Shown: piece after piece, positions 3,201 to 52,561 of the stretch | Layout: each line of letters begins with the position of its first letter | Numbering within the stretch: the stretch's first letter is position 1 | Source of the DNA: Promethearchaeota archaeon | GTDB taxonomy: Archaea; Asgardarchaeota; Lokiarchaeia; Sigyniarchaeales; SOKP01 | Length of the DNA stretch: 64,000 nt | Assembly (NCBI GenBank): GCA_048937405.1 | Contig: JBHLNF010000001.1 | Location: 656,785-720,784, forward strand | Direction: 5' to 3' | Translations under genes and position numbers: made by a program | The notes under the pieces: model-generated | Database searches by the model: none | Seen by the model: the letters and a program-made list of their open reading frames with translations, nothing else | What the model was told of the DNA's origin: nothing

Positions 3201-6200
3201 AACCAATAAGGTTGAATAACGTCTAAACTTAACATAGCTTCCAAAATTGGAGAATTTATAGGAATTGGGAAGCAAAACCAGAGGAAATAGCGATATTCTT
3301 TAATTAAAAAATAAAAAAATAAAATAGATACAGAAGAAAAAGTCGAAATTAATATCCCTGGTGACGCCTTGAAAATCAATGATACAAAAGAAGTAGCAGA
3401 TAATGAAGCTCCAATAATGATAATTAAATATTGAATTATGTTATTGATAGGTAGTCCCATTCTATATCGATTAAAAATGAAAAATGAGAAACCAATAACA
3501 GTTAACCAAAGAGAGGACGCTAATACAAAAAATCCAGTTATAAGATTGATCATATTGAATATTAACCAGGCTAAATTAAATATTAGTATCCATGAGAGGC
3601 TAAAATCTATAATTTTACTAACATATTTATTTGAAATCTTTATATATTTTGAGGAAAAAAGACTCAAACCTACAACAATAAAGCTGATGTTTATAGAAAA
3701 AATGAGATCTAAAATTAATAAATAAAGAATAGAAACGACTGTGAAAAAGATACCTAAAAGACTCACAATATATGCACATAATAAAATAAGTTCACGAGAT
3801 CTTATATTTGGAAAAAATGAATAGACAATTAACAAAAAGCCAATAACTAAAACATCAATTGAAATTGCAATTTCTAAATCAACACTAATAGATATTAAAT
3901 AAAAAAATAAAAAGAAACCATTAACAGCAGTTAACATAAGCCAAATTTTAGATACAATTTTCCAATATTTAACTCCTACGAACAATGGCATTAATAGGAT
4001 AACTGCAAATAAAAGAAAAGATAAATTTCTTAATAAGAGATTACTAATAAATAAATTTAGACTAATCCAATAGAGTAAGAATAGGCTTTCACCCCATATA
4101 ATAAATATAATTTGAAAAAAGTATTTCTTAATTTTTGTATACAGGACAGGTAAAAAAAATAAAGAACATATTATTATCGATATTATAAATGAACCTTTTA
4201 CTTGAAATACCCCAAATTGTAATGAATCAGTAAGTACATCAATTCCAGTAAAACTCTGATATATGATAAAGAAGTTTATAAAAGGTAGAATATTCCATAC
4301 ATACCATCCTGATTTCCAAATTGTCCATGAAATCCTCCAATGATATATTCCAATACAAAAATAAAAAAGAAAAACGCCAAAATCTATAGCGAATATTAAC
4401 GGAACTATAGATAATACGTGCATTGATAGAGAAGCAATGATTATAAAATATAAAAAAGTTGGAAAAGCTATAACTATAGAAGCAAGTATAGCAAAGAAAA
4501 ATTTATTTCTAAGCCTTTTTGGAGCATCATTATATAATAAAATTAATCCAAAATCTGATATACTTAGAGTGAGAGTGAAAGTTAAAATTGGATTGTAAGT
4601 ACCATAAATCTGATTATTAAAGAACCATGAGTATGATAAAAAGCTAATAAAGTCAAAGACAAATAAAATTACACAAGGTTTAATAAACCATTTATAACGT
4701 TCATCTTTTTGATGGTGAAAGTAAATTCCTGTAAAGAATAAGAATAAGAAAATTGAAATTGTTACGTTATAAATAGCTAAAATATTTGTAAAATTCATGA
4801 GAGAAATAAACGAGAGAATAGAAATTAACAAATATAATGAAAATTTTTCTTGGGTATTGTTTTTCTTAATATTTAGAGTAATAGAGAAAATTAAAACGGA
4901 AATTGTCGTTAAGAGATATAGATTGATGATTATACTTATGTTTGTTAAATTTAGCCCTATCACAACACCATAACTATCTAGAATTACTAGAATCGCAGCA
5001 AAAGTATAATAACTCAACAGAAAATATGATAAAAACCTAAAAATGGAGCTTATACTTCTCTTAGAAAGAATAAGCATATAAGATATTAATATAAGGAGAA
5101 TTGAAAGAGTACTATTAACATAAAGAAGGCTGAAAAATAAGATGATTGAAGTTAGATATAATCTGTAAATATTCAGTGAAGATGACTGTTCTATTACTTC
5201 ATTATATTTTATAGAAAAATAATATAAAATTAAAATCAGATTAACTGTGAGAGATATTATTTTCAAAAGTGAATTTTGATAGAACAATGGTATTGAATTT
5301 AATAAATTGAACAAAATTTCTATATAAATACCCAATAAAGAAAGGTTAAATACAATTTCAGTTATTTTTTTCAATAATAATTTATTTTTGGATGAAATTA
5401 ACCTCAGATTTTTTAGTATGTGAAGGCTTAATGGTGTAAGAATAGTAAATATTAATGATATAAGTAAAATTTTATTTACAATAAAAAATTGATAAGCAAA
5501 CACTTCAATTAGCATATAAATTAAAAAACATAATATTATCTTTATGATCATCCATGCAATTAATTCAGAAATAATTTTTACTTGAGTTAATTTCAGACTT
5601 ATTAAATTATCACTCACTATCAAAAGTAAAAGAAATAATGTGGTAAAAAAACCAATCAGAATAGTGGAATTGAATACTATTGAACTTAAAAAAAGATAAG
5701 ATAGAATATTTGTTGAAAGACTTAAAAATGTGAAAATGTATGATATTGAAATAATTATTCCATAAATTATGATATCTTGATACTTTTTCAAGGTTAAATA
5801 TTTTGGGTCATAGGAGGATGTTAATTTCAAGGTATAAATACTCAATAAAAAGAATAATAAGAAGCTACAACTTAACGTTAGAAAAACTACAGGAGTTAAT
5901 GTAAACCTATTAATAAAGGTCGAAGAAATATAATAAGAAAGAAGTAATGAAAATAGAAACCAGATAATTAGTTTAAGCAATTTGGAGTTTCTTATATATT
6001 TTTCTTTCAACTTAATTTTGATAGCGATAATCTCGAAAATATTAAGAAAAACAAATAGAATTAATAGTGTTAGAGTTATTATTGGAATAAAATTCGCTGC
6101 GAATCCAAATACTTCTATTCCAATGATAAATGGCAATGAAACAATTAAACATGATAATGCTGTAAAATTATAGATTGTTAATTGTCTTACTGATACTAGA

Positions 6201-10894: not shown

Positions 10895-10909
10895 GGGAAG
10901 ATTTATATA
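10895..10909 (+). promoter_or_regulatory. Putative BRE/TATA promoter of the structured leader and small ORF
   Basis: Purine-rich GGGAAG followed by TTTATATA (10902-10909), about 24 nt upstream of ATG 10933 and the first stem. Confidence 0.5.
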
Positions 10910-10932: not shown

Positions 10933-11161
10933 ATGAGTTTTTCACATAATACAACGGATTATTGGTGCAAGACCCAAGGTAAGGTATTACCGGTAATCCG
11001 TGGTATTAAGAGAGAATAAATCAAAACTCTTGACCTTTTTCTTATAATTTTTCCTGATTTGTTCTCTTTTATAACTACAACTCAATAAAATTTATTTGAA
11101 ATGGGTCAATAATAAAATTGATTCTCCAAGTGAAGGATTCAATAAAAAATAGAGGTGAAAA
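10933..11161 (+). ncRNA. Putative structured cis-regulatory RNA leader or sRNA
   Basis: 21-bp stem 10947-10967/10988-11008 (one mismatch, three G-U); 13-bp stem 11011-11023/11055-11067; extra pairings 11030-35/11104-09 and 10935-41/11023-29. G-U pairs favour the + strand. Confidence 0.55.
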
Positions 11162-11164
11162 TTT

Positions 11165-11344
11165 TTGGAGGAAGAATCAAGGAAAACTGATCTAATATTG
11201 GATTATTATAAAGATTGGGATTCTTATAAAGCCCCAGTCATGATGTCAATTGACATCCCTAATGATTTTTCAGAAAGCCTTGAGGCAAAAGATGATAGGA
11301 GACTAAAAGCCTTGAGACTTAAAATGAAAAAAAGACTGGAGTAA
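11165..11344 (+). CDS. Small hypothetical protein (59 aa), not in the ORF track
   Basis: SD GAGGTGA at 11152-58, TTG start; MEEESRKTDLILDYYKDWDSYKAPVMMSIDIPNDFSESLEAKDDRRLKALRLKMKKRLE; T-rich tract downstream. Confidence 0.75.
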   Translation: MEEESRKTDLILDYYKDWDSYKAPVMMSIDIPNDFSESLEAKDDRRLKALRLKMKKRLE

Positions 11345-11391
11345 AAAAGAAATAAGGATCTTTTATATTTTATTAACTTTTTTTAAATTTA

Positions 11392-32805: not shown

Positions 32806-32909
32806 TGGAGCCCCCGGTGGGACTTGAACCCACGACCGGCAGATTACAACTGCAGGGCTGTTTGAATAATGAATCACTGTCTGCTGCTCTACCACTAAGC
32901 CACGGAGGC
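32806..32909 (-). tRNA. tRNA-Thr(UGU) with a 29-nt intron at position 32/33 (32850-32878) and encoded CCA
   Basis: Cloverleaf GCCTCCG/CGGGGGC, U73, T-loop TTCAAGT. After splicing the anticodon arm is GCAGA-CTTGTAA-TCTGC. BHB motif: helix GCAG/CTGC with bulges AC^A and AG^T. Confidence 0.92.
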
Positions 32910-50562: not shown

Positions 50563-51306
50563 ACGTTATTCCAAGCGGAAATAGCACGATTTATACTAAT
50601 TTACATTTTCTTAGGTATTTTAGCAGTTTATTTCTCAATAATTGCCTTTAAAGTCTTAAAGAGAAAAAAACAACGTTTAAATCTAATTATTAGTGGATTT
50701 TATATCAGTCTCTCCACAGGTTTTTATTTAAACATGGTCTATGCCACGATAACTGAACCAATTACTATTTTAATACTTAATTTTTTAACTAATTTCTTTA
50801 TTTTTTTTGGCACAATATTTCTTCTTATCGCAAATTTGATAATACTGGAATCGACTCTTATTTATTCAATAAAAAGACAAAATAAGTTTATTTTATTCTA
50901 TGGAATCTTACTTTTCACAGGTATGTTATTATTAGTAATATTAGGAATATTCTTTGATAATCCAAGTAGTCCGTTTTTAGGAGTCAAAATAATTGGTGTT
51001 GTTCCAAAATGGGGTCCTATTTTTTTTACCTATATAATTTCGATAGTGACTGTTTTTACCCTTATTCCAATAAATTATACGAATTTTAAAATCTTTTTTC
51101 GATTTGAAACTATTGCTTTGAAAAGAAAATGGTTTTATCACTTAGTAGGCTTTTTAGGGATAACAGTGATTTTTTATTTATCGTGCATTTTTAATATTTT
51201 GGATCCTGGACATCCTTTAAAATTGATAATTATATTATTGCATATGTCATTAATAATCTGGGGTTATTTGATGTATTATGGAATTGGAATTAAATTTAAA
51301 GATTGA
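50563..51306 (+). CDS. 7TM membrane protein, paralog of 53288-54007; true start appears to be ACG at 50563
   Basis: The frame is open 57 codons upstream of ATG 50734 and aligns with the paralog N-terminus (ARF..Y..G...KVLKR...RLNLIISGFY). GGTGA SD lies 6 nt before ACG, with an in-frame stop just upstream. Confidence 0.75.
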   Translation, partial: TLFQAEIARFILIYIFLGILAVYFSIIAFKVLKRKKQRLNLIISGFYISLSTGFYLNMVYATITEPITILILNFLTNFFIFFGTIFLLIANLIILESTLIYSIKRQNKFILFYGILLFTGMLLLVILGIFFDNPSSPFLGVKIIGVVPKWGPIFFTYIISIVTVFTLIPINYTNFKIFFRFETIALKRKWFYHLVGFLGITVIFYLSCIFNILDPGHPLKLIIILLHMSLIIWGYLMYYGIGIKFKD

Positions 51307-51466
51307 TATTGAATCCTTATATCTTGAAATAAATATTCATTTTTTTTTTTAGGAATTTTTATGACATAACTTATTTTGTTTTTTTTTTCACGGGAAAAAA
51401 AGGAAAATTTTATATATTCTTTCAAAAAGACTTAATTATCTGAATAAAATTTAATGGGATATTAAG

Positions 51467-52561
51467 ATGGAAACCATTACTAAAAACAAATTAAGAATTC
51501 AAGAAGATGATACTTATTTTCAAAAATTTGTATTTAAAAATGGACGAGAATATGGATTAAGGTTTGCAACTCCAAAAGATGCTGCTGTTATCTTATCCAT
51601 GTTCAAAGAAAGCTATAATTATATATATCCTTATCCACTTGTTTATGATATAGAACTTTTAAAAAAGAATATTGCAAAACCGAATAACTTTTGGGTGTTA
51701 AGCGATTTATTAGAAAGTAAAATAACTGTTGGATGTGCTTTAGTGGAAAGTGAAAGGTATATTGCTCATGCAGGACGTTTAATAGTGAAGAAGAATTTTC
51801 AAAAGCAAGGAATTACAAGAAATTTAGCAGCTGCAGGGCTTATAGCAGTTACAAGGATGCCCCAATTTAAATCTGTTTTAAGACTTAATACTGAAGTTCG
51901 TGCTCCATTAACACAAGTTCAAAATTCCGCTCAGAACGCAGGTGCAATCCCTTATAGTATAATTCCTAGTTATCTTAAATTAGCAGACAACAGATATTTT
52001 GATTTTGATGATAATAACCCATGTATTCCTCAATTTGAAGAATCTGCAGTGCTTTATTCAATGATTTTTAGAAATCTATGGAAAAAAAGAACTAAAAATG
52101 TTTTTCTATTAGATAATGAAGATATAATTTTCCTGTATAAATATGTTAGAAATCAAGCTAAAAGAATGCAAGATGATACATTAATCTTAAAAAATGAGAA
52201 AAACAGTGAATTATATGAACTTTTTGGGGTTTCAAAGGATTTTTACATGGCAAATGTGAATTTATTTGGTTATATAAAAGAAAAATCGCTCAATAACTTA
52301 TTAAAAACCTATAAGAATTGGAGACTTATCATATGGAAAATTCCCACAACGGAACTTGGAATATCTTCAATGTCTCTTGCTCTGAGAAAAGGTTTTAAAG
52401 TGGTGGGTTATGATATTGGATTTAATAATTATAATTGGACATTGTTTGATTCTATTATTCTAGCTTACTATCCTAACAGAAATTATGATTTATCAGATAT
52501 AAAGTGTATAGATTCAATAAAACCACTCTTTGACAGAATAAAGCAACAATTCTTAAATTAA
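51467..52561 (+). CDS. GNAT-like N-acetyltransferase domain protein
   Basis: LRFATPKDA, YPYP, GRLIVKKNFQKQGI (motif A). Confidence 0.7.
   Translation: METITKNKLRIQEDDTYFQKFVFKNGREYGLRFATPKDAAVILSMFKESYNYIYPYPLVYDIELLKKNIAKPNNFWVLSDLLESKITVGCALVESERYIAHAGRLIVKKNFQKQGITRNLAAAGLIAVTRMPQFKSVLRLNTEVRAPLTQVQNSAQNAGAIPYSIIPSYLKLADNRYFDFDDNNPCIPQFEESAVLYSMIFRNLWKKRTKNVFLLDNEDIIFLYKYVRNQAKRMQDDTLILKNEKNSELYELFGVSKDFYMANVNLFGYIKEKSLNNLLKTYKNWRLIIWKIPTTELGISSMSLALRKGFKVVGYDIGFNNYNWTLFDSIILAYYPNRNYDLSDIKCIDSIKPLFDRIKQQFLN

Follow-up and report, generated by a model that had tools for sequence, protein, structure and literature searches.

The structured leader that precedes a 59-aa ORF in the window (the whole 64,000-nt stretch of DNA analysed, from contig 7, C7, of the source genome, here labelled G000; 4.47 Mb, 28.9% GC) is best explained as the type A member of a Lokiarchaeial family of attenuator-like mRNA leaders that are read by the ribosome, a reading to which a probability of roughly 0.6 can be given. 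It is preferred because none of the alternatives weighed below explains a conserved open frame within the leader together with the gene-matched codon runs found in paralogous leaders. More generally, this is a conserved and structured + strand leader, with a pseudoknot and competing helices, that is cotranscribed with the 59-aa ORF and very probably has a regulatory role. Its features are collected in Table 1.

Table 1. Positions, within the window, of the type A leader, its promoter and the ORF that follows it
Feature	Position	Strand	Remark
Direct repeat ATGGGAA-N4-ATGGGAA	10882..10899	+	immediately 5′ of TATA box
TATA box TTTATATA	10902..10909	+	conserved in orthologs
uORF, 28 codons + TAA, MSFSHNTTDYWCKTQGKVLPVIRGIKRE	10933..11019	+	frame conserved in orthologs
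P0 5′ strand (UGAGUUUUUCAC), uORF codons 1-5	10934..10945	+	minimum-energy fold
P1, long hairpin wholly within uORF	10947..11008	+	-25.7 kcal/mol
P2 5′ arm (AGAGAGAAUAAAUC), holding uORF stop codon 11017-11019	11009..11022	+	
Pseudoknot 5′ strand UUGACCU.UUUC, in P2 loop	11030..11041	+	
U-tract UUUUUCUU in P2 loop	11036..11043	+	17-24 nt past uORF stop
P2 3′ arm (GAUUUGUUCUCUUU)	11056..11069	+	14-bp stem with 11009-11022
Helix E 3′ strand	11071..11078	+	pairs with 11000-11007 (P1 3′ arm); extends P2, competes with P1
Pseudoknot 3′ strand GAAA.GGGUCAA	11098..11109	+	partner of 11030-11041
Pyrimidine tract UCUCC	11123..11127	+	complementary to SD and to purine-rich P2 5′ arm
P0 3′ strand (GUGAAGGAUUCA)	11130..11141	+	partner of 10934-10945 in minimum-energy fold
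Shine-Dalgarno (SD) AGAGGUGA (GGAGGUGA in most orthologs)	11151..11158	+	
59-aa ORF, near-cognate start (TTG here)	11165..11344	+	
T/A run	11378..11384	.	between convergent 59-aa ORF and LL-DAP aminotransferase gene

The leader and its ORF are single-copy in the source genome, with a divergent gene for a family-4 glycosidase on one side and a convergent gene for an aminotransferase of the LL-diaminopimelate type on the other; the T/A run between the two convergent genes is probably a terminator that they share. Orthologs of leader plus ORF, with 69-85% identity, are present in 21 of the 24 genomes first sampled from the genus, and in 48 of 53 in a wider sample of it. Both the 59-aa protein and its leader are present in 36 of 42 genomes from a second large genus, and in two further, small genera of this family; none was found in those other families of the order that the search covered. 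The comparisons below use 41 sequences (21 genus orthologs and 20 loci of genera g22 and g14), orthologous loci that represent at least three genera of one Lokiarchaeial family. Such a comparison of regions upstream of homologs had been proposed in an earlier note on this DNA, and it yielded conserved, covarying structure across the 41 sequences, with compensatory pairs counted per helix. Elsewhere in the window, a tRNA match at 32809-32909 (- strand) spans 101 nt against a 71-position model, and probably bears an intron.

In the leader that it described, the earlier note had overlooked a conserved open frame of 28 codons that runs through the first hairpin. The ATG of this upstream ORF (uORF), at 10933, is contained in a conserved block (TAATGAGTTTTTCAC); the frame traverses P1 and stops inside the 5′ arm of P2. 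The uORF is found in all 21 genus orthologs (27-31 aa) and at all 20 loci of g22 and g14 (23-32 aa, an internal ATG being taken at one locus). Across these orthologs the stop falls in or just before P2; across the three leader types (A, and the paralogous B1 and B2 described below) it falls within P2 or at its base. When the first ATG of each row is taken, frame 0 is free of stops in 40 of 41 sequences, even though uORF length varies between 23 and 32 codons. By contrast, frame +1 (88 stops) is open in none of the 41 and frame +2 (83 stops) in 1, and 17% of shuffled spans are open.

What is conserved in the encoded peptide is mostly at its ends: an N-terminal motif, MxFSxHNT, whose codons also form P0 and P1, and, in g22, a C-terminal motif, W.G[YC]K[RS]A[FI]IP. 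The middle is wholly different between clades (KTQGKVLPVIRG, GLHFYVKPVFISS, WEGYKRAFIPVV), while the hairpin is retained. Since the peptide varies in this way and the pairing does not, selection seems to act on translation and RNA structure, on the open frame and its base pairs, rather than on a particular peptide; this is the signature of a regulatory uORF. The MxFSxHNT motif could nonetheless mean that the peptide itself is functional. A plain two-gene operon, in which the 59-aa protein and a micropeptide of 28 aa would each have a function and the structured spacer stabilises the mRNA or sets their ratio without sensing anything, would account for the conserved ends and for a uORF that is open in nearly all orthologs; it is nevertheless unlikely, given the replacement of the central peptide between clades with the hairpin kept, the conservation of the competing helices P1 and E, and the occurrence of homologous leaders with unrelated peptide bodies before the genes for LeuRS and an FrhB-TrmB protein. 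Readthrough or frameshifting at the uORF stop was considered and set aside: beyond the stop, types A and B1 have about 22-24 codons before the frame closes and B2 has three, and no slippery heptamer was seen by eye.

The whole leader folds better than shuffled sequences (z = -4.95 on the + strand, -3.56 on the - strand). The stems and the pseudoknot described in the earlier note are all present in the sequence, with some correction of detail. What had been given as a 21-bp stem with three G-U pairs, implying a + strand RNA, is P1; the G-U pairs and the strand hold, pairing being possible on the + strand only, and the composition is 6 bp, an A/G mismatch and 14 bp. The second stem, P2, has 14 bp rather than 13. 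P1 is found in all 21 genus orthologs when each sequence is folded separately, its base conserved and its apex freely changing, and it has compensatory pairs in the LeuRS paralog (type B1). Run on a plain MAFFT alignment, RNAalifold preferred the invariant pairing between the 5′ end and the SD and missed P1, because the length of the apex varies; this is why P1 was folded per sequence and named helices were counted.

In P2, 97.6% of cells pair among the 41 sequences; the 5′ arm is mostly invariant, and a GAG/CUC in type A against a GCG/CGC in the paralogs is a compensatory difference. The pseudoknot, first recognised as TTGACC 11030-35 with GGTCAA 11104-09, turns out to be part of a longer helix (11030-11041 with 11098-11109) in which 85.6% of cells pair, against 43-51% in slid controls, and in which 6 of 11 pairs are compensatory over the 41 sequences and 5 of 7 within the genus; examples are UUGACC/GGUCAA, UUAACC/GGUUAA and UCCCU/AGGGA. 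Helix E, which contributes about -8 kcal/mol to P2, pairs in 82.7% of cells and shows limited covariation, one pair switching from U-A (16 sequences) to G-C (14) between genera. Since 11000-11007 belongs to both, P1 and E are mutually exclusive helices, and they overlap the uORF. Several nucleotides of P2 and its loop (AAUAAAUC, CUUUUUCUU, GAUUUGUU) are nearly invariant, in paralogs and across genera alike. Readings as C/D-box, H/ACA or K-turn elements were tried by eye and dropped: AAUGAG and CUGA are not retained together across the leader types.

Covariation is slight or absent in the helices through which such a switch would act on the SD: P0, and the pairings of the SD with the pyrimidine tract and with the 5′ end. 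P0 pairs in 70-76% of cells across the 41 sequences, with few compensatory changes. The pyrimidine tract and the SD pair in 90.7% of cells, against 61-71% when slid, and the changes are one-sided only; this 5-bp pairing is not the preferred local fold in the source genome, and is a minor part of the larger conserved structure. The earlier note had also suggested that TTTTCAC (10939-45) pairs with a GTGAAAA at the SD. That complementarity is kept in 94% of cells, but it cannot be separated from conservation of the SD and of the uORF, because both sides are invariant. Its other proposal for the 5′ end, AAAACTC 11023-29 with GAGTTTT 10935-41, is present here but lacks conservation: 63.7% of cells pair in this register, and 60.1% after a shift of one column. 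A pairing of the P2 5′ arm with the pyrimidine tract, used by the minimum-energy fold, was rejected at 71.8% of cells, no better than shuffles.

By joining the 5′ end to 11130-41, P0 makes a self-contained domain of about 210 nt, which might be taken for an independent small ncRNA that merely lies upstream of the ORF, as the earlier note had considered. This is highly improbable: all 41 copies directly precede a small ORF with its SD, the supposed ncRNA contains a conserved ORF, and there is no run of at least five T between the pseudoknot and the SD in the window. Nor is there a regulated intrinsic terminator of the usual order, hairpin and then U-tract; neither P2 nor the pseudoknot is followed by a U-tract that persists across genera. 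The conserved U-tract is instead inside the P2 loop, where it is retained with small variations in types A, B1 and B2 and may be an archaeal oligo-U termination signal. Because it sits in the loop, and not after the hairpin, the logic of bacterial terminators cannot be transferred to it.

The ATG at 10933 lies 31 nt past the first base of the TATA box, whose center is about 27 nt upstream of it. This is the spacing expected for a leaderless mRNA, and on that basis the transcript is predicted to be leaderless or nearly so, starting at or near 10933. The direct repeat abuts the TATA box of the type A promoter only, and the promoters of the type B paralogs are without it. Its TGGGAA and ATGGG cores are invariant in the 21 genus orthologs, and it is kept in g22, partly in the form TGGGAA-N7-CCCA; it may be a candidate transcription-factor site, adding a second layer of control. 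A similar site is found in G000 at C10:54493, ahead of a small Cys-rich ORF.

At the other end of the leader, the GAGGTG of the SD is invariant in the 41 sequences. In the orthologs, the 59-aa ORF starts at CTG, ACG or TTG and seldom at ATG, at a distance of 6-7 nt from a perfect SD (GGAGGTGA); the ATG that occurs nine codons into the ORF is not conserved. A near-cognate start at this distance from a perfect SD suggests that translation of the ORF is tightly limited. The protein has 65 homologs, all in Lokiarchaeota/Promethearchaeota records and all annotated as hypothetical, and matched no family in Pfam or NCBIfam; its predicted structure consists of two low-confidence helices (pLDDT 71, pTM 0.33).

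A covariance model of P2 and the downstream pseudoknot strand (R1) found a second locus in the source genome, and at least two loci in most of 52/54 genomes of the genus. It scored the window copy at 125 bits and the paralogs at 35-60 bits; since R1 was built partly from the window copy, independent support for a leader family comes from covariation. Both paralogous types, B1 and B2, have the same layout: a TATA box, an ATG about 26-30 nt on, a uORF of 27-29 codons containing P1, a stop at the base of P2, a U-rich loop and a pseudoknot whose strands differ from those of type A and stay complementary to each other. The window copy shares these family features, having a P2 with the AAUAAAUC/GAUUUGUU core and a U-rich loop that pairs downstream, and a uORF of the family's range (about 23-32 codons, beginning some 25-30 nt after the TATA box) with P1 inside it and its end in or at the base of P2.

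Type B1 is found about 90 nt before an archaeal-type LeuRS gene. Its uORF, of 27-29 codons, ends in LLAVLLL(S) at all 36 genus loci where it was identified (consensus MISNKTALKMNL.EK.SLVDLLAVLLL(S)); in genera g22 and g23 the peptide is different, and its end is still Leu-rich (LLLQALLQLLL, LLAVLLLLL, LLVLLLLL). Pairing holds in 91% of cells over 34 B1 sequences, with compensatory changes in 7 of the 14 pairs of the pseudoknot. In the source genome, the LeuRS leader is on C22 (- strand) at about 51540 to 51254, alternatively bounded as about 51245-51481; it has a uORF, MNLNKTALNINLRDLVSLVKLHAVLLLS, that ends in LLAVLLLS, a perfect 14-bp pseudoknot (UUAUAAUCUUUUUC with GAAAGAGAUUAUAA), and an imperfect P2, on account of which it was missed by R1 and had to be located via the LeuRS gene. 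A helix E analogue in this paralog was not accepted (76.7% of cells pair, not above shuffles, without covariation). The AGGUGG of the LeuRS paralog bears some likeness to a T-box; the motif is absent from type A. Type B2 (G000 C15, about 4969-5210; uORF MILISTSTRTLVRVLISLSIILLVVLII) precedes an FrhB/FdhB-like gene with a C-terminal TrmB domain, between methylmalonyl-CoA mutase genes and meaB. The source-genome B2 copy has a T5 run after the pseudoknot; T5 runs are common by chance at a genome composition of 29% GC.

Three LeuRS loci in the sister family f2 (genera g8 and g9) have no Leu uORF upstream, and two complete single-contig f2 genomes that were sampled (G038, G071) are without a LeuRS leader uORF. 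The upstream regions in g8 and g9 have instead a conserved block of their own, GGTGAAAACTATAATGGGTGAATATTTTCTC, perhaps a leader of another kind. The source genome also encodes, outside the window at C7:133668-134918, a product 26% identical to LeuRS over about 450 residues and with a similar N terminus (MVDYNAEKIEKKWQQKWEKDKIFE); no comparable uORF was seen in the 500 nt upstream of this gene.

The conservation of the P2-pseudoknot raises the possibility of a metabolite or ion riboswitch, in which the P2-pseudoknot would be an aptamer common to the three leader types and the uORF incidental. A compact pseudoknotted fold, near-invariant P2 and loop nucleotides across paralogs and genera, and one platform ahead of functionally unrelated genes are all in keeping with this; the invariant bases, though, are mostly in helices and not in junctions or bulges, and an aptamer explains neither a uORF held open against a 17% background nor a codon content in the paralogs that tracks the downstream gene. 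An Rfam search, as the earlier note had advised, gave no match at gathering score and nothing relevant at E ≤ 10; nine matches within that limit were all far below gathering score, and none was to a riboswitch family. A riboswitch is thus quite improbable. The analysis brought no support for ligand binding, nor for the thermometer-like switch that the earlier note also proposed, for which the pairing of the pyrimidine tract with the SD would be the candidate hairpin.

Recognition of the P2-pseudoknot by a protein is another possibility, and U-rich single strands, such as the P2 loop resembles, are typical targets of archaeal Sm-like proteins and of aCPSF1/FttA. The leader would then be autoregulatory, bound by the 59-aa product itself, by an Lsm-type U-tract binder or by a termination factor, with translation of the uORF secondary. 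The sequence of P2 and its U-rich loop is indeed conserved beyond the needs of pairing. Yet nothing in the analysis points to a partner, and the 59-aa protein, modeled as two helices of low confidence, is absent from the loci of the paralogous leaders; such a leader seems very unlikely.

The ribosome-read reading draws further on leaders that do not have the P2-pseudoknot platform. The source genome was scanned for short ORFs that follow a TATA box and in which a single amino acid dominates the last ten codons. The top matches were a uORF with a Leu run, upstream of a leuA-like gene, and two with an Ile run, upstream of a cimA-like gene and of an IleRS gene. The leuA-like gene (DTTLRDGEQ motif) has a 33-codon uORF ending in LELLSLLLLLLL 87 nt upstream (within C7:561900-562500, ATG at C7:562333, - strand); the uORF ends in a Leu run at 21 of 22 loci, in seven genera of the family. 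The IleRS-like gene (G000 C28, ATG 237455, - strand) is preceded by the uORF MNIVTKFLGFIRNMIMIISTIIII, and its leader has competing pairings (GUGGAUGUGGAU / AUAUCCAC / UUCCACAUCC); an Ile-rich uORF is found before IleRS at 25 of 26 genus loci, most ending in IISTIIII. The cimA-like gene (DSTLREGSQ motif) has the uORF MKLKLKPIIGIIAIFIIIIGIII 105 nt upstream (G000 C20, ATG 77277, + strand). Because these leaders lack the platform, the ribosome-read principle appears wider than one RNA family. A further uORF, MMIIGKNHSIIIRNLLVLLSLILILVLV, was noted at G000 C25:146890 (- strand), 104 nt before a gene of 191 aa.

This arrangement suggests a course of events in which the start site, the translation of the uORF, the controlled step, the direction of control and the signal are all inferred. 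Transcription would start at the ATG at 10933 or no more than a few bases from it, and a ribosome loading at the leaderless 5′ end would translate the 28-codon uORF and melt P1. As the uORF ends in the P2 5′ arm, the position of the ribosome would choose among the helices: P1 or E, and P2 with the pseudoknot made through its U-rich loop. A ribosome on the last uORF codons would cover the P2 5′ arm; since P1 is far stronger than E, E would be expected only as long as the 5′ arm of P1 is occupied by a ribosome. The choice of helices would then set the expression of the 59-aa ORF, by termination or by access to the SD. In the first case, termination would occur at the U-tract when ribosome and polymerase are uncoupled; the distance of this tract from the uORF stop is about where the polymerase would stand when the lead ribosome finishes, and would fit coupling-dependent readthrough. 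In the second, SD access would be governed by pairing of the SD with the pyrimidine tract at 11123-27; P0 would compete with this pairing, and would also hide the 5′ AUG.

The regulatory codon run seen ahead of LeuRS (type B1), leuA and IleRS has no counterpart in type A; no amino-acid run was found in the 41 type A uORF peptides. Every one of them (41/41) does have at least one His codon, and the His is relocated when position 5/6 is Gln or Asn, which is weakly suggestive of histidine as what the type A uORF reads. The evidence is weak because the sequences are related, most of the His codons are in the P1 stem, and the peptide is also Trp- and Cys-rich. The neighboring aminotransferase lends no support to a histidine link, being of the LL-diaminopimelate type and not a histidine-pathway enzyme.

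Leader-peptide attenuation is a textbook bacterial mechanism, which needs coupled transcription and translation, and the element described here is probably an archaeal variant of such control. Classical attenuators (E. coli pheM-pheST and leuL; Streptomyces leuS and trpS) likewise combine a short leader ORF with competing helices that overlap it, and their codon runs match the downstream gene, as do those of the paralogs and analogues here (Leu for LeuRS and leuA, Ile for IleRS). They differ in that the host here is an archaeon, the uORF is apparently leaderless, the window copy is without a regulatory codon run, and in place of a hairpin-plus-U-tract terminator there is a stem whose U-rich loop forms a pseudoknot. 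Archaeal termination differs from the bacterial kind, and the output step can therefore not be assumed from the bacterial model. Among bacterial precedents for synthetase genes are the pheST-type attenuators and the predicted leuS and trpS attenuators of Streptomyces (PMC1262725).

A further likeness is to the leaderless polycysteine short ORFs of mycobacteria, which are Cys-responsive translational attenuators and whose several loci of shared design have been termed a “ribulon” (bioRxiv 10.1101/834739). There too a leaderless sensory short ORF is the first cistron, and several loci have one design; those bacterial cases have been tested by mutation, while the present one is proposed from sequence comparison, its SD link (11123-27) showing one-sided variation only. 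With T-box riboswitches the analogy is functional only, that of a structured leader before aminoacyl-tRNA synthetase genes: there is no specifier loop, no T-box sequence and no Rfam T-box match, and a T-box senses uncharged tRNA, whereas the proposed sensor here is a translating ribosome. Eukaryotic uORFs of the GCN4/ATF4 type resemble the proposed mechanism in that the main ORF is regulated through translation of a short ORF ahead of it. They require a scanning 40S subunit and eIF2 phosphorylation, however, while the main ORF here is served by an SD of its own and is probably linked to the uORF by refolding of the RNA. Full-text literature searches turned up neither a published case of archaeal leader-peptide attenuation nor a description of a leader family with the uORF-P2-pseudoknot design.

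If the ribosome-read reading is right, ribosome-read control exists in the archaeal lineage, where it would provide natural test cases for ribosome-polymerase coupling and for factor-dependent termination; it would also give eukaryotic uORF control a prokaryotic system to be compared with. The 59-aa protein would merit study as a conserved product that is apparently under tight control through its near-cognate start. The window copy may show what else the platform can sense, since it has kept the platform and has lost, or never had, an amino-acid codon run. A broader proposal can be put forward more tentatively, at somewhat less than even odds: ribosome-mediated attenuation may be general in Lokiarchaeia, with leaderless uORFs gauging charged tRNA and controlling LeuRS, IleRS, leuA, cimA and further genes. 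The window copy would then be a divergent member that reads another signal, perhaps histidine or overall translation capacity, and switches on the 59-aa protein through a pseudoknotted platform that has no bacterial counterpart.
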